From an uncultured Methanoregulaceae archaeon (GTDB taxonomy: Archaea > Halobacteriota > Methanomicrobia > Methanomicrobiales > Methanospirillaceae), in assembly GCA_963841015.1 (NCBI GenBank), contig CAWJAX010000005.1, positions 384,001 to 448,000 on the forward strand: DNA of 64,000 nt. Direction: 5' to 3'. Position 1 is the first letter of the stretch, and each line of letters opens with the position of its first letter. The translations under genes were made by a program, and so were the position numbers. A model generated the notes under the pieces. The model saw only the letters and a program-made list of their open reading frames with translations, searched no databases and was not told where the DNA came from. Shown piece after piece: positions 2,156 to 37,820 of this stretch.

Positions 2156-3260
2156 GGTCACTCACCCCGAACCAGAACTCTTCGCCGACATGACGCTTCA
2201 GGATGAAATCCGCAATATCTTCATAGGTGACTTCCTGGCCACCAAGACCGGCAATCACGCTGAACACATCGGTCTTCTGCTGAGCCTGGATGGATTTTGC
2301 GAGTATTCCCCCGAATCCAAACGAATAGTCGCGGTCGATAACGACGATTTCCTTTCCTTTGAGATCGAGGTCAGGGAACGGGCGCAGCCAGCGCAGGCGC
2401 ATTGAACCTGCCCTGATACCATCCTTGCGGAGCATATCGATCGCAACTTCGGCCTCCTTGCCGAGAGTGCCCATGGAAACAACGACCACATCGGCGTCTT
2501 CACATCGGTAGTCTTCGGTGAATCCGTACTTCCTGCCAAAACGCTTCGCGAACTCCTTCTCGGTTGCCCCGATTATTTTAACTGCATCACGCATCGAGCG
2601 TTCGATATCCCAGCGGAATTTAAAATGCTGGTCAGGGCCGGTAAGCCCGCCATATCCCGCAGGATTCTTCGGATCAATAGCATGGGGGAGGCGCATCGGG
2701 GGTATAAAATCCCCGATTTCGACCGTATCAAGCGGCTGCATGATATGACTCAGGGTGAAACCGTCAAGATTCACCATCACCGGCAACAGCACATCCTTAT
2801 GTTCGGCAATCCGGAATGCCATCAGCGTTGCATCGTATGCTTCCTGCACGGTGCTCACGTACACCTGGAGCCAGCCCGTGTCGCGTTCCTGCATTGCATC
2901 AGTATGCTCCGCCCAGATATTCCACCCGGGACCAATGGATCGGTTTACGTTTGCCATGACAACAGGCAGACGTGCGCCCGCTGCCCAGTTTGTCATTTCA
3001 TGCATATACAAAAGACCATGGGAGCTTGTTGCGGTAAATGTCCGTACTCCGGTGATACTCGCACCGATGCATGCGGCCATCGCGGAGTGTTCACTTTCAA
3101 CCGGAATATAACGACTTTTCAGTTCCCCTGTGGACACAAACTCTGCGATTTGTTCGACGATTTCTGTCTGGGGTGTAATCGGGTACGCGGCGATTACTGC
3201 CGGCTGAACCTGTTTTACTGCTTCAGCGACTGCCTTATTACCGGTTGCGATCTTTTTCAT
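2148..3260 (-). CDS. porA: 2-oxoacid:ferredoxin oxidoreductase alpha subunit
   Basis: AAYPITPQT, VESEHSA, TATSSHGL and GLGG motifs. Confidence 0.92.
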   Translation of the reverse strand: MKKIATGNKAVAEAVKQVQPAVIAAYPITPQTEIVEQIAEFVSTGELKSRYIPVESEHSAMAACIGASITGVRTFTATSSHGLLYMHEMTNWAAGARLPVVMANVNRSIGPGWNIWAEHTDAMQERDTGWLQVYVSTVQEAYDATLMAFRIAEHKDVLLPVMVNLDGFTLSHIMQPLDTVEIGDFIPPMRLPHAIDPKNPAGYGGLTGPDQHFKFRWDIERSMRDAVKIIGATEKEFAKRFGRKYGFTEDYRCEDADVVVVSMGTLGKEAEVAIDMLRKDGIRAGSMRLRWLRPFPDLDLKGKEIVVIDRDYSFGFGGILAKSIQAQQKTDVFSVIAGLGGQEVTYEDIADFILKRHVGEEFWFGVSDHV

Positions 3261-4135
3261 TCCTCAGCCTCCTCAGCAGCCAGTTTCTTGACATTTTTTG
3301 CGATATTCTGCCGGAGCAGTTCAAGCGTTTTTGCATCGATACCCTTAAACCGTCCTTGGGGGGCAAGATACTCTTCGAGAGGAACAGGTTTTTTCATTGC
3401 AGCTTTTGACTGGGGGTTGATGGAGAGCTTTCCGTACTCGCGTTCGTAGAGTATCCACATTCCGGATTTTACGGCAAGCTTTCCCATTTCGACGGATTTT
3501 TCCGTGGAATAACGCCACCCGGGAGGACAGGGTGCAAGGATGTGGATGAATGAAGGCCCCCGGAAGGTGAGCGCTTTCTGCACTTTCTTGAACAGATCCT
3601 GAGGGTAAGCAGCACAGGCAGTCGCCATGTAGGGCGGGTTGTGTGCGGCGATGATCGCATCGATGTCCTTTTTCGCATCTGTCTTACCGGTTGGCGTGGT
3701 GGTCGTGCGGGCGCCTATCGGTGTCCCCCCCGACCGTTGCATTCCGGTATTGCCATATGCCTCATTGTCATAGCAGATGTAGAGAAAATCGGTGCCCCGC
3801 TCAAAAGCACCGGACATCGCCTGGATGCCGATATCAAGGGTTCCTCCATCACCGGCATATACGATCACATTGGTCTTTTTTCCCGAGGCACGGAACGCAT
3901 TTGACATACCCGATGCACATGCAGCAGCAGCACCAAAGGCGATGTTGTAAACGGGTATATTGAAGGCTGTGTTCGGGTAAATGCCCTGTATGACACTTGT
4001 GCAGCAGGCAGGCACGACAAGAACGGTATCAGGTCCTGCCGCCTTGAGCACGTACCTGAGTGCGAGCGAATCGCTGCACCCGGCACACGCGGATGTACAT
4101 TTCAGCACGTATTCTTCTTTAGGAATTTCAGTGAT
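3257..4135 (-). CDS. porB: 2-oxoacid:ferredoxin oxidoreductase beta subunit (TPP-binding); start uncertain, ATC at 4135 or GTG at 4108
   Basis: ACAGC, GDGGTLDIG, YDNEAYGNTGMQ and PCPPGW motifs; frame stays open upstream of the GTG to ITEIPKEEY, with AGGAG 9 nt before the ATC. Confidence 0.9.
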   Translation of the reverse strand: MTEIPKEEYVLKCTSACAGCSDSLALRYVLKAAGPDTVLVVPACCTSVIQGIYPNTAFNIPVYNIAFGAAAACASGMSNAFRASGKKTNVIVYAGDGGTLDIGIQAMSGAFERGTDFLYICYDNEAYGNTGMQRSGGTPIGARTTTTPTGKTDAKKDIDAIIAAHNPPYMATACAAYPQDLFKKVQKALTFRGPSFIHILAPCPPGWRYSTEKSVEMGKLAVKSGMWILYEREYGKLSINPQSKAAMKKPVPLEEYLAPQGRFKGIDAKTLELLRQNIAKNVKKLAAEEAEE

Positions 4136-4517
4136 GGTATCCAGCTCCTGCGGTGATACATAATATGTTAGTAAGCGCGAAAAGAGATCGCGAAACTATC
4201 TTAATACATCAACATGGGTCAAGAAAAAAGTATCATATCGTGCATGACTCCGGTGCTCAAGCAGCATATCTGAATCACTTTCACCCTGCCCGGTGAGGTG
4301 TTTAAAGATATGATATTTCAACAAGGTATGTGGGGAGGAAAAACCCCTCAGTGTCAGGTGCAGGATCATTGCACTTTACCCCTCCCGGCCTCTCATAAAC
4401 CTTACAGAAACCTAAAAAACCAAAAAAAACCACTTTTCTTTTTGTTTTTTTCTGGATGAGCTGATACGTCGGTGTATCCTGTCACATATCATAATATATT
4501 TTAGGATCATTTCTCTA

Positions 4518-5012
4518 ATGTCTTCTATGTCTCTTCGCTCGCTCAATCTCCCCGGTGTCGGAACAAAATATGAATTCGAGACCGATAAAGGTGATACGGT
4601 TGCAATTTTTTTCACAAAAACCGGAACTATCCAGATGTATACCCTCCAGAAAGGCTGCAAAACACCCAGCGCAGCGGAGATGACCCTTGTTGAGGCGCGA
4701 AGACTGGGGAACATCCTCACCGGTGCGATCATGGAAGCGGACCAGGAAAGTGTCGAGATCGCATTCTCGGCGCTTGCCGATCTCCGGGTTACTATCCATT
4801 CGTTCATCATCCCAAAAGCCATTTCCGGAAAAACAATTGAAGATCTCCAGATACGGGCAAAGACCGGGGCGACGGTAATCGCGGTCTGCCGGCATGACAA
4901 GAATATTATCAACCCCCCTCCCGCATTTGTCTTTGAGACCGGTGATGCGGCACTGGTTATTGGAGAAAGTGACCAGATCAGAATGTTTGAGCGCGAAATT
5001 ATGGTGGATTAA
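4518..5012 (+). CDS. Cation:proton antiporter regulatory subunit (KhtT-like, TrkA-C domain)
   Basis: LPGVGTKY N-terminus; GKTIEDLQIRAKTGATVIAV and NPPP TrkA-C motifs. Confidence 0.85.
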   Translation: MSSMSLRSLNLPGVGTKYEFETDKGDTVAIFFTKTGTIQMYTLQKGCKTPSAAEMTLVEARRLGNILTGAIMEADQESVEIAFSALADLRVTIHSFIIPKAISGKTIEDLQIRAKTGATVIAVCRHDKNIINPPPAFVFETGDAALVIGESDQIRMFEREIMVD

Positions 5013-6154
5013 TGGAAGGGATCGTCCTTGCGCTATTCGTCTGCCTTCTCCTGGTGCTCATCACCAAGTACCTGTCGGTTCCTGCAATACCCTTCTATAT
5101 TCTTGCCGGGGTATTACTGGGAAGTGCGGGGCTCGGGCTGGTCACTTCAGATGAGATCAGCCGTTTCCTGTCCGGAATGGGGCTGATATTTTTACTGTTC
5201 TTCATGGGTCTCGGGTTGAAACCCGAGCGTATTGCAGCAAACCGTTCTTCCGTCCTCACCAGTGGGTTCATCGATCTTAATGTCAACATGATTATCGGTT
5301 TTGCTGGGGCATACCTTCTGGGATTTTCGGTTACCGAGTCGCTTATTGTTGCTGCAGCGTTCTATATTTCGAGTACAGCGATGGCAATCACCTCGCTCAT
5401 CGAAAACCGGAAGCTGATGCTCCGAGAAGCCGAAACGGTCATCTGGCTGATGGTCTTTGAAGATCTTATTCTTATCATCTTTCTTGCCCTTATTTCAGCC
5501 GGTAACCAGAACCTGATCGTTTTCCTTGTGAAAATTCTCGGTGTTCTGGGGGTGCTTTATGCATTGGCCCATTATGGTAAAGAATTTCTTATCTCGATTC
5601 TTGACCGTGATGATGAGCTTCCGATCATCTTCACATTTGTTGCCGTGCTCACTACCGCCTCAGTCTCTATGTACCTGGGAATTCCCGAATCAATGATGGT
5701 GATCGCTCTTGGTGTTGCATTTGCAACAACGGATCCAGATGCTTTTGAGCAGCATGCTCGTCCCTTTAAGGATGTTTTTTTGGTCGTTTTCTTTGTTTTC
5801 TTCGGTGTCACTATTGACTTTTCCGGAGGGGTAAACTGGTTTACGATCACTATCATCTGCCTCCTCGCTATCGTGAGTAAGCTCATATCCGGTGTGCTAA
5901 CCGGAATATTCATTCATGGTTCGGCGCTTTCAGGCCTTGAAATCTGGGGAAATACGATTGGCAGGGGGGAATTCTCCATTGCTATTGCTGTTCTCTATGG
6001 CTCTCCGCTTATCGGGACCACGATTGCAGCGATGGTTATCGTAACATCGATCGTTGGATCGTTTGCGGCAAAATACAGTTCATCGTTACGGAGTGGGATT
6101 CTGCACCTGGGACGGAAAAAATCCTCCCCGCGCCGGGTGCATCCGGGACGCTGA
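5012..6154 (+). CDS. CPA2-family cation:proton antiporter (KhtU-like)
   Basis: Multi-pass membrane protein with GLIFLLFFMGL, SSTA, VFEDL and RGEFS motifs; TAATG overlap with the khtT-like gene. Confidence 0.88.
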   Translation: MEGIVLALFVCLLLVLITKYLSVPAIPFYILAGVLLGSAGLGLVTSDEISRFLSGMGLIFLLFFMGLGLKPERIAANRSSVLTSGFIDLNVNMIIGFAGAYLLGFSVTESLIVAAAFYISSTAMAITSLIENRKLMLREAETVIWLMVFEDLILIIFLALISAGNQNLIVFLVKILGVLGVLYALAHYGKEFLISILDRDDELPIIFTFVAVLTTASVSMYLGIPESMMVIALGVAFATTDPDAFEQHARPFKDVFLVVFFVFFGVTIDFSGGVNWFTITIICLLAIVSKLISGVLTGIFIHGSALSGLEIWGNTIGRGEFSIAIAVLYGSPLIGTTIAAMVIVTSIVGSFAAKYSSSLRSGILHLGRKKSSPRRVHPGR

Positions 6155-6157
6155 GTA

Positions 6158-6805
6158 TTATTCGATCAGCACAAGCCCGATCGAGTGGATATCGGAATGC
6201 ATGATCTTCCCATATTCATTATTTTTGCATGGGACCGTTTCAAGTTCCCAGCCAACATTTCTGGCAGTTGCGAACACGTCCATGCCTGCAGCCTCCATGC
6301 TCGGCCGTACCTTATCCATATGCCGGCACTTCCGGCGCATGCTTTCGTCCACTACTCCAGGCGCCTCCTCAGCAACACAGTGCTGGTGCTCGCAGTATAT
6401 GCAGGGATAACCGCCAAACCCGAATGCCTTGTAAAAGCCATCATAGAAAGCAGTCTTTTCAAGCAGGTGCATTGTTCCATTCACCCAGATGATCAGGTCC
6501 CTGAACCAGTCATGAAAGTCATCCGGTATATCCTCTGGCCCAAACGACCCCCGACCAGGTACCCCGTCAAACCGGAGCAGCAATCCGGTGGAGTACTCGT
6601 CTATCATGTGGCGGGTTTCATCGGGGGACGGGGCGTAGGGTGGACAGCCGAAATGCTTGCCATACCCTTTGCAGCCATACCGGCACTTGAACCGAACCCA
6701 TTGGGATACAACAATTTTTTCCGGTGTAATTATCTTGACTATAACACCCTTTCCGCTCGCAATTTTCGTGAGTTTTTCAATTTCATCCGAAATATCCGTA
6801 AACAC
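6158..6805 (-). CDS. DUF2284-like predicted metal-binding protein
   Basis: KCRYGC-YG-CPP, GPCxxC-like and RPSMEAAGMDV motifs; GTG start at 6805 chosen because GGGAG precedes it. Confidence 0.8.
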   Translation of the reverse strand: MFTDISDEIEKLTKIASGKGVIVKIITPEKIVVSQWVRFKCRYGCKGYGKHFGCPPYAPSPDETRHMIDEYSTGLLLRFDGVPGRGSFGPEDIPDDFHDWFRDLIIWVNGTMHLLEKTAFYDGFYKAFGFGGYPCIYCEHQHCVAEEAPGVVDESMRRKCRHMDKVRPSMEAAGMDVFATARNVGWELETVPCKNNEYGKIMHSDIHSIGLVLIE

Positions 6806-7075
6806 ACCCAAAGCTCCCAAAAGAGAAGATGAGAACAGGTACCAATAAAAGTTTGTGCCCGGCTCGTTATGCTTATCAGGTATGCCGCTCTGATTATTTG
6901 GTGTCTGACCCAGGAATAAACGGGAGCGGTACATTCAAAACCTACAGGTAACCTTTCTTTGAATGTCGCAGGGTAGGGATATCTCATAAAACCCTGGAGG
7001 ATTTAACGTGCGGATAGTGCACCGATCTGCATATTATCAGCTATGAACGTGAATTCAGGTGAAGGATGTTTGGGT

Positions 7076-7522
7076 CTATTCCCGGTTATCCTCCTTTTTG
7101 CCCCGCACTTCAATGATGCGTTGCACAACGAACCGTGAACTGCAGAGATCCCCGTTTTCGTATTTGCCGATGCGGACAATTTCCGGAGCCAGCCCGCGTT
7201 CAGTGAGCTGCAGATGTAGTGTTCTCTCATCGAAATGCTGGTTGAATCCTATGGTAATTACATCAGGCTGGATCTCTTTGATCGGGAGGAACATATCCGT
7301 TTTATCCCCAAGAATTGCATGATCTACGGGTTTCAGGGCAGCGACCATCTGGAGGCGGTACTCTTCGGGAATGATAGGACTGGGTTTGTGTCTGACGTTT
7401 GCGTCACGGGCAACGATTACCCAGAGCTCGTCACCCATTTTTTTTGATTCCTCAAGATAGTAAAGATGCCCCGGGTGGAGGATATCAAACGTCCCGGTAG
7501 CGACGACCCGGCGAGGAATCAC
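7076..7522 (-). CDS. ribL: Archaeal FAD synthase
   Basis: VVATGTFDILHPGH nucleotidyltransferase motif; C-terminal CSS. Confidence 0.85.
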   Translation of the reverse strand: MIPRRVVATGTFDILHPGHLYYLEESKKMGDELWVIVARDANVRHKPSPIIPEEYRLQMVAALKPVDHAILGDKTDMFLPIKEIQPDVITIGFNQHFDERTLHLQLTERGLAPEIVRIGKYENGDLCSSRFVVQRIIEVRGKKEDNRE

Positions 7523-7890
7523 CCGATCACCTCAATGGTGTGCGGATTGCCATCTGCCGTAAAACACTGCCAGTCAGACTCGTGATACGGGTAACCGATG
7601 ATAAGGTGATACCGGCCTGTCCGCGGAAAAAAATTCACATCTGCCTGCGAAGGGCGAAGTATACCGTTCGGGTGACTGTGGGCGCTCCCGGCAAGATGGG
7701 TATCAAGTGGCATCATATCAAAGAGAAGTGATGCGGAATCCTCTCCGGCTATGGTGCCCGGGAGCATATTCATCTCCTCAATAATGCCGTCCCGTTCGCG
7801 GAGGAGGGCGACGAATTCATTGGGGTGGCTGGTGCGTCCCAACTCAAGGAGAAGTAACAGGAGTTCCTGTCGGATTCCGCGAATATTCAT
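7519..7890 (-). CDS. JAMM/MPN+ (Mov34) metalloprotease
   Basis: HPNE and HSHPxxxxxPSxxD JAMM motif; stop overlaps the ribL start. Confidence 0.85.
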   Translation of the reverse strand: MNIRGIRQELLLLLLELGRTSHPNEFVALLRERDGIIEEMNMLPGTIAGEDSASLLFDMMPLDTHLAGSAHSHPNGILRPSQADVNFFPRTGRYHLIIGYPYHESDWQCFTADGNPHTIEVIG

Positions 7891-21952: not shown

Positions 21953-23083
21953 TCAGGGGATGATCTCACATCCGTTATACTTTTCATGGGAAAAATCTGC
22001 TCGATGAATTGCACCGCAGGCGATAAGGTCTCTTACACGAGGAAGAGCCTTCATCAGACCTGTATGAAGAGTTTCTACGGTACTGCAGACTATCCTGCGC
22101 TCATTCACCCCCCATGGTTTTATAATGTTTGAATAGAGGCATCTCCCCCCACAGAATCCGCGGATTTGACAGTCTGCACACTCCCCATTTACCATAACGA
22201 CCGGAAGATTGCGGGGGTCAGAATCCAGTATGTGCCCTACGTAGTACTGCGACATCCCTATCATCACCGGGCAGGGAGCGATGTGTCCGTCGGTCATAAT
22301 ACTGTAGTTGGCATACCCTGAACCGCACCTGAGACTGCTCTGGCGTTCAAGAAGAAGGTCTTCCATGGGATCAAGGAATGGGTACCAGTGCAACACCTCC
22401 CCCTCGTTTTCCATATGGTCAACCCAGTCTGATACGAGTCTGAGGATACCAGGATTGTAGTTCTCAATAACCCAGTCTCCAAACTGTCGATGTGAAAAAT
22501 CATCGGCAAAATTGGCATCCAGTTGCCAGTGAATGGAAGGGAAGGAATAATCCGGGTTGTCAGCAAGCCAGTGGACTTCTTCGGCAATATCCGTATTCTC
22601 ATTTACGGTCATACGGGCAATAAGTTCATGAATATACCCATTATAGCGGATTTTTTTAATATTCTCCATTACTTTCCGGTACGTCCCTTCACCCCGGTTT
22701 GCATCCGTCAGCTCCTTCCTCCCGTCTAGAGAGACAAGGATCGTAGAGAAACGGTTGATAATTTCAGGAGATAACCGGTCAAGCAGGAGCCCGTTGGTCT
22801 GAATCATAAACCGGTGCACCGGTGCTTCCCGAACGATAGTGCTGACAAGATCTGGGCGCATCAGTGGTTCGCCACCATAGAAGGTGAGTGTTGCTGAAGG
22901 ATCCTTTTTTAAAAAATTGTAGATAAGAGGGAGATCAACATCAAGTTCTGGGGGAAGAAACCGGTCTATCTCCAGGGATACTTTATCCGGGCCCTCCGCA
23001 CCTTCCTTAGCTTCGAATATTTTACCCCGGCAGTAGCTGCAGCAGAGATTACACTCATCTGTGACTATGAGGTGGAAGTGCAC
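21953..23083 (-). CDS. Radical SAM/SPASM protein, AF0577 (TIGR04084)-like
   Basis: CNLCCSYC, FYGGEPL, LRCGSG-PCP and CADC-CGGRC SPASM cysteines; ends in GCEIIP; GTG start at 23083. Confidence 0.85.
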   Translation of the reverse strand: MHFHLIVTDECNLCCSYCRGKIFEAKEGAEGPDKVSLEIDRFLPPELDVDLPLIYNFLKKDPSATLTFYGGEPLMRPDLVSTIVREAPVHRFMIQTNGLLLDRLSPEIINRFSTILVSLDGRKELTDANRGEGTYRKVMENIKKIRYNGYIHELIARMTVNENTDIAEEVHWLADNPDYSFPSIHWQLDANFADDFSHRQFGDWVIENYNPGILRLVSDWVDHMENEGEVLHWYPFLDPMEDLLLERQSSLRCGSGYANYSIMTDGHIAPCPVMIGMSQYYVGHILDSDPRNLPVVMVNGECADCQIRGFCGGRCLYSNIIKPWGVNERRIVCSTVETLHTGLMKALPRVRDLIACGAIHRADFSHEKYNGCEIIP

Positions 23084-23227
23084 GAAAATCTTATCACATA
23101 TGAGATGTGACAGACGATAAAAGGGCAGCATGCAATGGCTGGGTTTTTTGCCGTGGCGAAAAAAATCCCATAAATTTTTTTGAGAAATGCCACAATCTAT
23201 AAACAACCATTCTGGTAATAATCCGGT

Positions 23228-24589
23228 ATGTCCGTGGACCGGTATTATGCTCCAGAGATTGAGACTATGGAGCGGGGAGATCTCGATGCTTTGATAGATG
23301 AACGGGTGCGCTACACCGTTCAATACGCCGCTGAACATTCCCCGTTTTACCGGAAGTGGTTCTCTGAGAACAACATCAACCCCGCAGAAATCAGGGAACA
23401 TGAGGATCTCCTGACCCTGCCAGTTATTTCAGGAAAAACAATAAGGGAGCACCAGCCCCCTGTTACACCTGAATTTGAATTTTTATCCACCAGCTGGAGC
23501 AACGTCTTTTCTATTCAGGAAACAAGTGGGACAAGTGGAACACCCAAGGGTTTTTTCCTGACCTGGGATGACTGGAAGCGTTATGCTGAGAAGTACGCCC
23601 GGAGTTTCGTCTCACAGGGATTTTCGAATAAGGACCGGATTGTAGTCTGCGCATCGTATGGCATGAATGTTGGTGCGAATACGATGACGATAGCCGCACA
23701 GCGCATTGGCATGGGTATTATCCCCATTGGAAAATGTACCTTTGAATCACGGATTCTGAAAAGTTATAAACCCACATCAATTGTGGGGAGTATATTCAAA
23801 CTGCTCAGGCTCGCACGACGGCTCTCTTCGGAAGGGATCAAAACTTCTGACACATCGATCGATAAGCTGGTCGCTGGTGGTGAGGCTTTTGCGGACGAAT
23901 CCCGGGCCTATCTTGCCGAATTGTGGGGAGTGCCGGTCTTTAACACTTATGGGAGCACGGAAGGTACGATGTGTGGTGAATGCACGCAGATTGCCGGGCT
24001 TCATGTCCCTGAAGATCTCGTCCACCTTGATGTCTATGATCCCCGGATGCAGTCGTTTGTGAATGATGGTGAGTGCGGGAGGGGAGTGCTTACCACGCTG
24101 CTGCCGGTTGGTGGTAAGTGTGGTATGTTGCTGATCAATTATGATACCGAGGACACTACTGTAGTTCTCACCCGCGAGCGCTGCAGGTGCGGAAGGACTC
24201 ACATGCGCATCATCAATCCCCAGAGAGAAGCAGAAACCATCTGGTTATTCGGGAACCCTTTCAACCGAAGTGACATAGAGGCAGCAGTTTTCCAGCATCC
24301 GAGTATGGCATATATTACCGGCGAGTATGAAGCCTATGTGTACGATGGGGATATGCCGGGGGAATCCGTGTTGCGGGTTAATCTCGAGTGCTTTGATCCG
24401 GAACACTGCGACCGGCACCTTGTAGAAGATCAGTTTGTTTCGCGTTTCCTGAAGTACAAATCATTGATCGCAGAACACTATCACGACCAGTCATTCCACA
24501 TCGAATTTAAATTTACCGGGCCCCGGGGGCTCGATTTCTATACACTGAAAGGACGCCCAAAACGACTTGTTGACAGAAGGGAACACTGA
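23228..24589 (+). CDS. ftsA: Coenzyme F390 synthetase
   Basis: ETSGTSGTPK AMP-binding loop; CASYGMNVGA, YGSTEG, LINYDTED and GRPKRLVDRR motifs. Confidence 0.85.
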   Translation: MSVDRYYAPEIETMERGDLDALIDERVRYTVQYAAEHSPFYRKWFSENNINPAEIREHEDLLTLPVISGKTIREHQPPVTPEFEFLSTSWSNVFSIQETSGTSGTPKGFFLTWDDWKRYAEKYARSFVSQGFSNKDRIVVCASYGMNVGANTMTIAAQRIGMGIIPIGKCTFESRILKSYKPTSIVGSIFKLLRLARRLSSEGIKTSDTSIDKLVAGGEAFADESRAYLAELWGVPVFNTYGSTEGTMCGECTQIAGLHVPEDLVHLDVYDPRMQSFVNDGECGRGVLTTLLPVGGKCGMLLINYDTEDTTVVLTRERCRCGRTHMRIINPQREAETIWLFGNPFNRSDIEAAVFQHPSMAYITGEYEAYVYDGDMPGESVLRVNLECFDPEHCDRHLVEDQFVSRFLKYKSLIAEHYHDQSFHIEFKFTGPRGLDFYTLKGRPKRLVDRREH

Positions 24590-24881: not shown

Positions 24882-24960
24882 CGACGGACTTCCGACGGAA
24901 ACCTTTTATATTATCAGGCGTTAATTCTCATTATCAAAACCCAATCGTGGTTTTGAGGTG
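24882..24960 (+). promoter_or_regulatory. Promoter and 5' UTR of the small basic protein gene
   Basis: CGACGGA twice (24882, 24893), then GAAAC and TTTTATA; hairpin TCAAAACC/GGTTTTGA; Shine-Dalgarno GAGGTG. Confidence 0.55.
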
Positions 24961-24965
24961 TTTAA

Positions 24966-25181
24966 ATGGGAACCAAAATTGGAAAAGAAAAAATTCAGCG
25001 TGAAAAGGGTTACCTTTACTTCATCGGCAAAGACGGCTATGTATGGGCCGCCCCGATGAAGCACAACAAGACCGGCAAGAAGAAGAAAGTCGGCACTGAA
25101 AAGATCGCAAAAGAATCCGGTTTCATGTACTATATCGGCAAGGACGGATTCGTCGCGAAAGCCAAGATGAAAAACGCATAA
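24966..25181 (+). CDS. Small Lys-rich protein with two internal repeats; putative nucleic-acid-binding protein
   Basis: 71 aa with 17 Lys; duplicated K-G-EKI-xE-G-xY-IGKDG-V-xxxMK unit; strong SD. Confidence 0.85.
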   Translation: MGTKIGKEKIQREKGYLYFIGKDGYVWAAPMKHNKTGKKKKVGTEKIAKESGFMYYIGKDGFVAKAKMKNA

Positions 25182-25201
25182 TTACACTTTTGCTATTGCA
25201 C

Positions 25202-25243
25202 GCAGTCCGTCTGCATGCCGGAAAACCGGCATGACGGGACTGC
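25202..25243 (+). terminator. Strong stem-loop in the 3' UTR (stabiliser or terminator)
   Basis: GCAGTCC/GGACTGC outer stem and CATGCCGG-AAAA-CCGGCATG inner stem, about 20 nt after the stop. Confidence 0.5.
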
Positions 25244-25420
25244 ACATATTTTCTCCTGACAGGAAAGTATCTCGCTTCAGACTCTTTTACCTAATTTTAA
25301 AAATACGCTATAACTGCTTCAGAAGTCCTGCAGATATCCAATTCGCCGGACCTAAAGATTGAATTGCTTTGCCATGTAAAAATGGTTTAATTCCGGTATT
25401 TTTTAAGATGTGACTGTTCC

Positions 25421-27199: not shown

Positions 27200-27270
27200 T
27201 GCATCGACCGGGAATTGAACCCGGGCTATAGGCTTGGAAGGCCTAAGTCATACCACTAGACCATCGATGC
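27200..27270 (-). tRNA. tRNA-Gly(TCC)
   Basis: GCATCGA/TCGATGC acceptor stem; anticodon arm TAGGC-CTTCCAA-GCCTA; TTCAATT T-loop. Confidence 0.93.
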
Positions 27271-36588: not shown

Positions 36589-37820
36589 TCGCTCAGGACT
36601 CCCATCCCGATTAGCCGCCAGCGTGCTCCCACCTGCCGGCTGATAGCTATCCTTGAACCCAGTTCTGCACATACAGGTCGCTTCAGCTGAATTTCAATGG
36701 TGTCTTTTTTCGTATTGCTGACTACGCCAACGGTAACGGCGGTTCCTACTGAAAGCATCAGCGGTTCACTGTGTTTTAACGGTTCAATGACCAGCTCGCT
36801 TGTAGCACCCACAACCCGCTCCATGAGCGTGACCCGGCACCGGATTTTGTCCCATACCGGAGGCAGTTTACCTTCGTGGCCTAGTACCTGACCTGCAAGC
36901 GTGTCACTTTTCGTCAGAGCCGGGTCGAGTCTGGTTCCCACTCCAAGCAGTCCGCCGGGAGTAGCCTCAGCGACCTTGTTAGAACCAGCATTGATCGATG
37001 TGACTTTTGTGGTGATAGGAATCCATTTTATCCTGTTTTCTGTCTGTGTCTGTCTGCCGGGCCGGATCTCGATATCATCACCTTCGCGGAGGATGCCCCG
37101 GATAAGAGATCCCCCAACGACGCCACCTTTCACATCCTTCCAGTTACAGCCAGGTTTGTTAACATCAAACGAGCGGGCGATAAGCATAACAGGTTCGGCA
37201 TTAGGATCACGCACGGGTTCAGGAATTGTCTGATCAAGTGCCTGAACAAGAGCACCAATATTGATTCCTTTCTGCGAAGAAACCGGAATGATTGGTGAGT
37301 TCTCAGCGATCGTTCCTTTAATGAATTTTTTTATCTCATGATAATTGTCGATCGCTTCTTTCTGGCTGACCACATCAATTTTACTCTGGACAATGACGAT
37401 ATTTTTTATCCCAACCAGCTCCAGCGCCATCAGGTGCTCTTTGGTCTGCGGCTGCGGGCACCTCTCACTTGCAGCAATGACCAGCATTGCTCCGTCCATT
37501 AATGCTGAACCGGACAACATCGTAGCCATGAGCGTCTCATGACCCGGTGCATCGACGAAGGAAATTGAACGAAATGGGGTTCCCTTTCCGCCACACACCG
37601 GACAATCGGAACTGGTCGAAAAGGCGTTTGTACCTTCGCACTTTTCGCACCGGTAAAAGGTAGCGTCAGCATATCCCAGACGGATAGAGATGCCGCGTTT
37701 CACCTCTTCACTGTGTCTGTCTGTCCATGTCCCGGTGAGTGCATTAACGAGTGTCGTTTTGCCATGATCGACATGACCTACCACTCCTATATTGACACTG
37801 GGAACTTTTACATCATGCAA
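36585..37820 (-). CDS. eif2g: Translation initiation factor 2 gamma subunit
   Basis: GHVDHGKTT, RGISIRLGY, DAPGHE and QTKEH motifs. Confidence 0.96.
   Translation of the reverse strand: MHDVKVPSVNIGVVGHVDHGKTTLVNALTGTWTDRHSEEVKRGISIRLGYADATFYRCEKCEGTNAFSTSSDCPVCGGKGTPFRSISFVDAPGHETLMATMLSGSALMDGAMLVIAASERCPQPQTKEHLMALELVGIKNIVIVQSKIDVVSQKEAIDNYHEIKKFIKGTIAENSPIIPVSSQKGINIGALVQALDQTIPEPVRDPNAEPVMLIARSFDVNKPGCNWKDVKGGVVGGSLIRGILREGDDIEIRPGRQTQTENRIKWIPITTKVTSINAGSNKVAEATPGGLLGVGTRLDPALTKSDTLAGQVLGHEGKLPPVWDKIRCRVTLMERVVGATSELVIEPLKHSEPLMLSVGTAVTVGVVSNTKKDTIEIQLKRPVCAELGSRIAISRQVGARWRLIGMGVLSE

Follow-up and report, generated by a model that had tools for sequence, protein, structure and literature searches.

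A lysine-rich tandem-repeat protein shared by Methanoregulaceae and Micrarchaeota, a candidate nucleic-acid binder of archaeal chromatin or RNA

We analyzed a stretch of 64,000 nucleotides from an uncultured Methanoregulaceae archaeon (GenBank assembly GCA_963841015.1, contig CAWJAX010000005.1, positions 384,001 to 448,000 of the forward strand; hereinafter the window), which belongs to a 2.28-Mb, 94%-complete Methanoregula-type genome, and concentrated on a small gene, present once in that genome, that runs from ATG to TAA and codes for a basic protein of 71 residues (Table 1). This is a real gene: a word-indexed search of 5.8 billion proteins recovered 398 homologous clusters, the ratio of nonsynonymous to synonymous divergence (dN/dS) between the window gene and its Methanoregula orthologs is 0.027–0.052 (Nei–Gojobori method; dS 0.23–1.17, unsaturated), and all 19 variant sites of the coding sequence (CDS) in contigs from RNA libraries are third codon positions, which together place it beyond chance. 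We give about even chances to the view that its product is an abundant, sequence-nonspecific nucleic-acid binder acting on DNA, as a chromatin protein, or on RNA or the ribosome.

The protein (8.02 kDa; isoelectric point, pI, 10.0) contains 17 lysines and one arginine against four glutamates and two aspartates, with a script-calculated net charge of about +11. It consists of two repeats, identical at 17 of 29 protein positions and 53 of 87 DNA positions, joined by a basic linker, and its gene stands by itself, 376 nt from the end of the upstream open reading frame (ORF; at 24589) and 239 nt from the start of the next one (25421). The original prediction, made from the letters of the DNA and a list of its ORFs, had described just such a lysine-rich, stand-alone protein of two near-copies and a basic linker; it had also credited the gene with many TTC, ATC, GGC and AAG codons, a claim for which we found mild support in small counts (TTC 3/3, ATC 3/5, GGC 5/10 and AAG 9/17, compared with fractions of 0.46, 0.48, 0.21 and 0.38, respectively, in 33 long ORFs of the window). 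The repeat unit is a module of ~33 residues, (K/R)(I/V)G-x-E-x-(I/V)-x-(R/K)-E-x-G-aromatic-(L/M)-Y-aromatic-x(3-4)-G-aromatic-V, and the near-invariant residues of the 71-residue protein are G15, L17, Y18, G24, G52, Y55 and G61. By eye we saw neither a signal peptide nor a transmembrane segment, and the protein looks cytoplasmic. An ORF on the opposite strand (24921–25064, −) overlaps the gene, and ORF clustering found a comparable one at 42 of 80 loci; it looks like a by-product of the lysine-rich coding strand rather than a gene.

Table 1. The gene for the 71-residue protein, its parts and its flanking signals (positions in the window)
Feature	Position	Strand	Basis or remark
B recognition element (BRE)-like CGGAAACC, then TATA box TTTTATATTA (putative archaeal promoter)	24896..24913	+	TATA-like element at 24904–24913, BRE-like element just before it; GAAACCTTTTATA kept in 11/11 Methanoregula-type upstream regions
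Conserved stem-loop of the 5′ untranslated region (UTR) (CAAAACC ... GGTTTTG)	24935..24955	+	RNAalifold, 11 loci; abuts the Shine–Dalgarno
Shine–Dalgarno GAGGTG	24955–24960	+	5 nt ahead of the ATG; invariant in 11 Methanoregula-type regions
CDS of the 71-residue basic protein	24966..25181	+	TAA stop included; homologs, dN/dS, RNA-library contigs
Repeat 1 (residues 4–32): predicted short strand, loop, beta-hairpin (strands 16–20, 26–30)	24975..25061	+	
Basic linker (residues 33–40, HNKTGKKK)	25062..25085	+	Mean predicted local distance difference test (pLDDT) there ~93
Repeat 2 (residues 41–69): predicted short strand, loop, beta-hairpin (strands 53–57, 63–67)	25086..25172	+	
3′ hairpin	25202..25243	+	Followed by TTTT at 25249–25252; another TTTT at 25188–25191

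Expression signals flank the gene on both sides. In an upstream alignment of the window with 14 other Methanoregulaceae loci (15 regions in all, of which 11 are of the Methanoregula type, one is L070 and three are of the Methanolinea type), the TATA box and the GAGGTG Shine–Dalgarno that the original prediction had picked out are both retained in all 11 Methanoregula-type regions, and going by the established archaeal consensus the BRE/TATA element would act as the promoter. L070 keeps the Shine–Dalgarno and has a different TATA block. The Methanolinea-type loci (L084, L095 and L098, at about 3970–4003) have a TATA-like box ~27 nt before the ATG and no Shine–Dalgarno; as their sequences stand, these orthologs are probably leaderless, unlike the Methanoregula version. 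The stem-loop of the 5′ UTR does not figure in the original prediction. Ten of its 11 consensus pairs are without two-sided change (two sequences break one outer pair), and the remaining pair shows a CG-to-UA compensation in four of the 11 sequences. The usual TATA spacing of ~26 nt would set the start of transcription near 24935 and put this stem-loop at the 5′ end of the mRNA, where it may serve as an mRNA stabilizer or an autoregulatory site. On the other side of the gene, the strong 3′ hairpin already noticed in the original prediction stands out from its background: the 89 nt between 25182 and 25270 fold with a minimum free energy of −35.4 kcal/mol (z −5.0; none of 200 shuffles was as stable), and four of the 14 consensus pairs carry compensatory changes among six Methanoregula loci. 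It is likely a terminator or a 3′-end stabilizer; a scan for sigma-70 promoters and bacterial terminators, which applies bacterial models to an archaeal host, left it unflagged.

The gene is present in RNA libraries. Part of the stretch occurs in 15 sequencing runs recorded as RNA, and the RNA-library contigs of four runs from four studies cover the coding region, those of one of the runs (X2) spanning only 24947–25187. Depth in such contigs does not rank expression, DNA may be carried over into RNA libraries, and the uncovered parts do not count as evidence for transcript ends; we accordingly claim presence, and not abundance, from these contigs.

Nothing scored at or above threshold for the window protein in Pfam, NCBIfam, PHROGs or PADLOC. 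The 398 clusters of the word-indexed search come from Methanoregula, Methanolinea, metagenome-assembled genomes (MAGs) of Methanomicrobiales, and Micrarchaeota/Anstonellales, the last at 73–80% identity and with the same length of 71 residues, and every named one is labeled 'hypothetical'. When 1.84 billion representatives were searched exhaustively with HMMER, 330 clusters came up at E ≤ 1e-3; among them are further forms of the family, viz., proteins of four repeats that end in a C-terminal zinc ribbon, membrane proteins that carry the module at the N terminus, and multi-repeat proteins. The zinc ribbons were recognized from sub-threshold Pfam matches (P0121 and P0122), precomputed Pfam domains (P0271) or C-terminal cysteine pairs read directly (P0124 and P0125). 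Short members are consistently basic, with a pI of at least 9 in all 102 close homologs of 65–80 residues and in 54 of 55 representatives of 60–85 residues (156 of 157 short forms); their net charge has a median of +10 to +11. Some members additionally carry tails rich in K/R or in K and A (e.g., P0260, P0145 and P0228); in P0260 just one repeat is present, and it leads into a long tail of mainly Lys, Ala and Pro that brings to mind those of histone H1 or HU. The window protein is part of a wider, uncharacterized family of repeat modules with fused forms, and the fusions fit a generic binding module.

The original prediction had been unable to match the protein to histone, Alba, MC1 or a ribosomal protein, and the Pfam and NCBIfam scans agree. 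The histone profile PF00808, which does pick up the two true histone genes that this genome has in other places, matched neither the window protein nor any of the 49 members of our alignment, and the structural model is all-beta; Alba (PF01918) and MC1 (PF05854) did not match the window protein, and no ribosomal-protein family matched it (Pfam and NCBIfam) or the 49 members (Pfam). We also considered, and rejected, membership in the pyrroloquinoline quinone (PQQ)-like propeller or choline-binding repeats, the matches being below threshold and the protein having two units only, where those families have four or more blades or arrays of many repeats: Choline_bind_2 is weakly present in 17 of the 49 members (best E 0.028, below the cut-off), and the alignment profile found weak repeat-level matches in the PDB to a choline-binding protein and to Cake8, a designed PQQ-type propeller, whose E-value of 8.8e-5 sums many sub-significant stretches with independent E-values of ~100 each. 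What the protein has in common with PQQ/BamB-type blades and choline-binding repeats is a tight tandem beta-hairpin with the motif G-aromatic-L/M-Y-aromatic ... x-D-G-aromatic-V, whereas it has two units, is very basic and cytoplasmic, and is predicted to fold by itself; we take the resemblance to reflect a hairpin motif held in common rather than membership. Its neighbors in a protein atlas are unnamed small proteins only, and in the full-text literature searched we found neither a description of the family nor proteomic or binding data on it.

An AlphaFold2 model built from the 49-sequence alignment (mean pLDDT 90.6; predicted template-modeling score 0.71) is all-beta, with four strands in two hairpins and a two-residue strand ahead of each hairpin, in keeping with the beta-hairpin protein that the original prediction had envisaged. 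The profile and structure searches that we ran gave no confident match to any characterized family, and the fold, as modeled, is not recognizable as a known one. No Sul7d, Sac7d or Cren7 chain was among the Foldseek rows or the VIA-align rows (Z ≥ 2) listed, which does not exclude an SH3-like fold. A homodimer prediction scored 0.01 (mark 0.42), a result that counts neither for nor against self-association.

Several known systems offer points of comparison. Sul7d/Sac7d and Cren7 are chromatin proteins of Crenarchaeota of ~7–8 kDa, Lys-rich and all-beta, encoded by stand-alone genes, which are abundant and bind double-stranded DNA nonspecifically through a face of the beta-sheet; the window protein differs from them in lacking a Pfam match, in its taxonomic range and in its internal tandem repeat, which is absent in those proteins. 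Histones, Alba and MC1 have the same candidate cellular role; histones and Alba coexist with the protein in the window genome, and the predicted all-beta structure contrasts with the helical fold of histones. A further comparison is with the top candidate nucleoid-associated protein (NAP) of Methanomassiliicoccales, WP_019177984.1/AGI86273.1, a Lys-rich protein of 74 residues with a pI of 9.64 that is reported to be highly abundant (1.34% of the proteome in M. luminyensis), to show nominal nucleoid enrichment only, and to have a patchy spread attributed to horizontal acquisition (Hocher 2022, PMC7613761). Like that candidate, the window protein is small, basic and Lys-rich, comes from a single-gene operon, and is without a known domain and with a novel predicted fold. 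Thermoplasmata MAGs also have members of the window family (the P0137 cluster, 61% identical). The likeness is a striking one, of properties and not of sequence; the two may be related, although shared properties are no proof of kinship. The named family matches include no protein of Methanomassiliicoccales (Methanomassiliicoccus, Methanomethylophilus), Sphingomonadales or Rhodobacterales, cluster look-ups of 30 divergent members gave only Thermoplasmata MAGs as organism names, and our literature search found the accession WP_019177984.1 only in the Hocher paper and its preprint.

The phyletic spread of the gene across phyla is patchy. In a sample of the class of the window archaeon it is found in 74 of 201 genomes, including all 41 of the same genus, 69 of 105 of the same family and four of seven of a second family, and it was not found in the 88 genomes of four other families; a sample of the phylum searched with the alignment profile yielded it in 21 of 301 genomes, among them weak, divergent copies in all four genomes of another family. 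The gene is present in 171 of 201 sampled Micrarchaeota with genomes of 0.5–1.6 Mb (a tally that includes the unpublished genomes G485 and G654), most of the listed matches having E-values of ~1e-30 to 1e-37; the family appears to be at home there, and to come close to a core gene. Proteins labeled Woesearchaeota and Marsarchaeota are also among the relatives. The window protein is 77% identical to a micrarchaeal copy (L080), whereas the same pair of genomes has S6e proteins of 43% and aIF2-gamma proteins of 49% identity. Since this identity so exceeds that of the translation proteins and dN/dS is low, we infer from the sequences that a horizontal exchange in the distant past, with very strong purifying selection ever since, best explains the Methanoregulaceae copy; synonymous sites are saturated between the two phyla. 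A tree of 74 rows and 71 columns, which took in eight unnamed relatives from the P series as outgroup and left out the other unnamed P relatives and identical sequences, leaves the direction of transfer unsettled because 45 of its 70 inner branches appear as open ones; no label takes fewer than three changes, and the eight-member outgroup does not form one side of any branch.

Distant relatives are further found on three viral contigs of IMG/VR. One of these (L113, 59.9 kb) encodes a member of 89 residues that is 36% identical to the window protein (pairwise E 3e-13), in a neighborhood (2341–7694) that has an upstream protein of 883 residues with weak AAA and DUF6371 matches and, downstream, YopX and a ResIII/SNF2-type helicase, and that looks like a replication or DNA-metabolism module. 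On another viral contig (L115, 4570–6890), a short partial match to the family lies beside a gene for a Tad2-like (Thoeris anti-defense) protein and a ParB-N6/N4 DNA methylase. One neighbor cluster in the protein atlas is 57% viral among the members with a record. Searches of 50,697 phage records and of 72,556 plasmids found no match to the family.

Gene neighborhoods differ from lineage to lineage. At the 19 Micrarchaeota loci nearest to the query, rpS6e lies directly downstream of the gene and on its strand in 10 cases and the aIF2-gamma gene in 12; at other close loci its neighbor is SRP54 or an RFC-like AAA+ protein. Forty further Micrarchaeota loci (L116–L155; picked down the match ranking and 49–79% identical to the query) have S6e directly downstream in two; here the commonest and most widely kept neighbor, at 19 loci, is a divergently transcribed gene of the PAC2 family (proteasome-assembly-chaperone-like), with DUF192 and aldehyde dehydrogenase genes at 12 and aEF-1beta at five. 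The adjacency to translation genes is thus specific to certain clades. No neighbor is conserved across lineages, and an operon-based assignment of function was rejected for lack of a lineage-independent partner. The divergent Halobacteriota copies sit among metabolic genes; in two genomes of one family, GNAT acetyltransferase genes (L106, 2746–3165; L107, 5205–5699) are at most two genes away from them, a proximity that could be synteny by kinship or a hint of lysine acetylation.

In the window itself, the neighbors encode a radical S-adenosylmethionine (SAM) protein, an AMP-binding enzyme, an unknown protein of 177 residues and a metallo-β-lactamase (MBL)-fold hydrolase, none of which is informative. 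As listed, the radical-SAM ORF (21953–23401, −) and the AMP-binding ORF (23228–24589, +) have 174 nt of their 5′ ends in common, and one of the two start codons probably lies further in. An aIF2-gamma gene is present at ~36600–37799 (−) of the window (G000:C5:420600–421799), ~11 kb downstream of the gene, and the S6e gene is far off on the same contig, so that the adjacency of the micrarchaeal type is missing here. The sole Rfam match at gathering score in the window is a tRNA gene at 27200–27270 (−).

Nonspecific nucleic-acid binding is suggested by the family-wide basic charge, the well-signaled stand-alone gene, the extreme conservation and the retention in Micrarchaeota with reduced genomes; in particular, a monocistronic gene with BRE/TATA element, Shine–Dalgarno, 5′ stem and 3′ hairpin has an organization typical of abundant small nucleic-acid binders. 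The zinc-ribbon fusions, the viral member among DNA-metabolism genes, the confident predicted structure and the presence of the gene in every sampled micrarchaeote without a histone match count in favor of this reading as well. The protein would offer two modules connected by the Lys-rich linker, each running from a short strand through a loop into a tight G-x-D/K-G hairpin rich in Tyr, Phe and Trp; the phosphate backbone would be contacted by lysines and arginines from the linker, from the termini and from the flanks of the hairpins, exposed aromatics of the sheets might pack on bases or in a groove, and the role, on DNA or on RNA, would be architectural or chaperone-like. Binding, mechanism and abundance are all inferred here, and a number of results weigh against this reading. 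A PDB sequence search with the single protein returned no matches, and structural comparisons of the model found no significant neighbor with Foldseek against the PDB (best E 0.61) or in BFVD (best E 0.42) and, with VIA-align, none at Z ≥ 5 (best Z 2.8; 48,161 representative chains compared). Weak resemblances recur only to the blades of beta-propellers and to choline-binding hairpin repeats, neither of which binds nucleic acids. Fusions also join the module to membrane proteins, to other unrelated regions and to a protein whose N-terminal region, judged by eye, resembles an M48-type peptidase. Two of the three divergent Halobacteriota copies are not basic (pI 6.4 and 5.0). The window genome is already supplied with histones (two genes) and Alba (one gene), and the cross-tabulation of the gene with histones in Micrarchaeota is weak (hypergeometric P ~0.08 by hand calculation, among interrelated genomes).

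If the protein does bind nucleic acids, its target may be DNA. That it coats or bends double-stranded DNA, next to histones and Alba in Methanoregula and as a principal NAP in Micrarchaeota, is possible, if doubtful. It is small, basic, monocistronic and equipped with strong expression signals like known NAPs (a single-gene operon being one criterion for NAPs in bioRxiv 10.1101/2021.07.08.451601). Of 101 Micrarchaeota sampled, 26 have no histone-fold match and all of these carry the gene, the eight without the gene all have histones, and none lacks both; yet 67 have histones and this protein together. Complementarity with MC1 was rejected, as MC1 was not found in the window genome or in any of the 201 genomes of the class, and this, along with the failure of Foldseek and VIA-align to detect a known DNA-binding fold, speaks against a chromatin role, as does the nominal nucleoid enrichment reported for the possibly related M. 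luminyensis candidate. The viral copy among DNA-metabolism genes points the other way, and a nonspecific DNA binder should spread across phyla more readily than a component of a machine would. Transfer of a lineage-specific ribosomal protein between phyla would need an rRNA site to match. An RNA-binding or ribosome-associated role, be it that of a ribosomal protein particular to certain lineages, of a chaperone for rRNA or mRNA, or of a factor in translation or hibernation, is one we regard as unlikely, even with the clade of Micrarchaeota in which the gene precedes rpS6e and aIF2-gamma, other clades with aEF-1beta downstream or SRP54 as a neighbor (also at L088, L099 and L100), and features that recall ribosomal proteins, namely a richness in lysine, a very slow rate of evolution and an almost universal occurrence in reduced genomes. 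In the broader sample S6e is seldom downstream and PAC2-family genes are commoner; the Methanoregula neighbors are the AMP-binding enzyme, the radical-SAM protein and the MBL hydrolase; the gene was not found in the 88 genomes of four other families of the class, so that it is not a general part of the archaeal ribosome; and no ribosomal Pfam family matched. A nucleoid protein is a plausible reading that no result favors over a role on RNA or the ribosome. Going furthest, one could propose a new class of chromatin protein with an unseen tandem beta-hairpin fold, a principal DNA coat of Micrarchaeota including the roughly one-quarter of sampled genomes without a detectable histone, exchanged horizontally with Methanoregulaceae and Thermoplasmata and perhaps of one family with the Methanomassiliicoccales candidate NAP; this we put forward as a speculation with the likelihood against it.

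The charge might instead be incidental, and the hairpin module, as kin of propeller blades or cell-wall repeats, might bind proteins or ligands as an adaptor or an oligomeric ring. We think this improbable: the weak Cake8, choline-binding and Choline_bind_2 matches that suggest it are all below curated thresholds, the existence of multi-repeat proteins and of fusions to membrane and other domains and the two neutral or acidic divergent copies have to be set against the strongly basic nature of nearly all short forms and a cytoplasmic location by sequence, and the AlphaFold2 monomer is a confident, self-contained unit. It is also very hard to see the gene as cargo of mobile-element or viral origin (a phage DNA-binding or anti-defense gene) instead of a host housekeeping gene. 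Relatives on three viral contigs, one of them beside a Tad2-like gene, the atlas neighbor cluster with its viral majority and the patchy spread across phyla are what such an origin has to recommend it, but the gene is in single copy with stable synteny within Methanoregula, is kept in most sampled Micrarchaeota, has a low dN/dS within Methanoregula (0.03–0.06), matches nothing in the phage, plasmid or PADLOC collections, and has no mobile-element genes beside it in the window. The original description was accurate, and its interpretation of a nucleic-acid-binding protein, possibly of the nucleoid, is reasonable, though unproven as to binding.

Archaeal chromatin is a patchwork of lineage-specific small proteins, and the DPANN archaea are nearly unstudied in this respect. 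Beyond what the original prediction saw, Micrarchaeota are the main home of the family, where a nameless protein that evolves more slowly than translation factors is retained in most of the sampled genomes despite their extreme reduction. The family may also help to place the top NAP candidate of Methanomassiliicoccales, as yet unexplained, in terms of structure and evolution, and, at 8 kDa, the protein is a short, easily expressed and cheap experimental target. Should DNA binding hold true, it would add a new fold to the chromatin proteins and another case of their movement between phyla; should RNA or the ribosome be the target, it would be an unrecognized housekeeping factor of two abundant lineages of wetlands and sediments.

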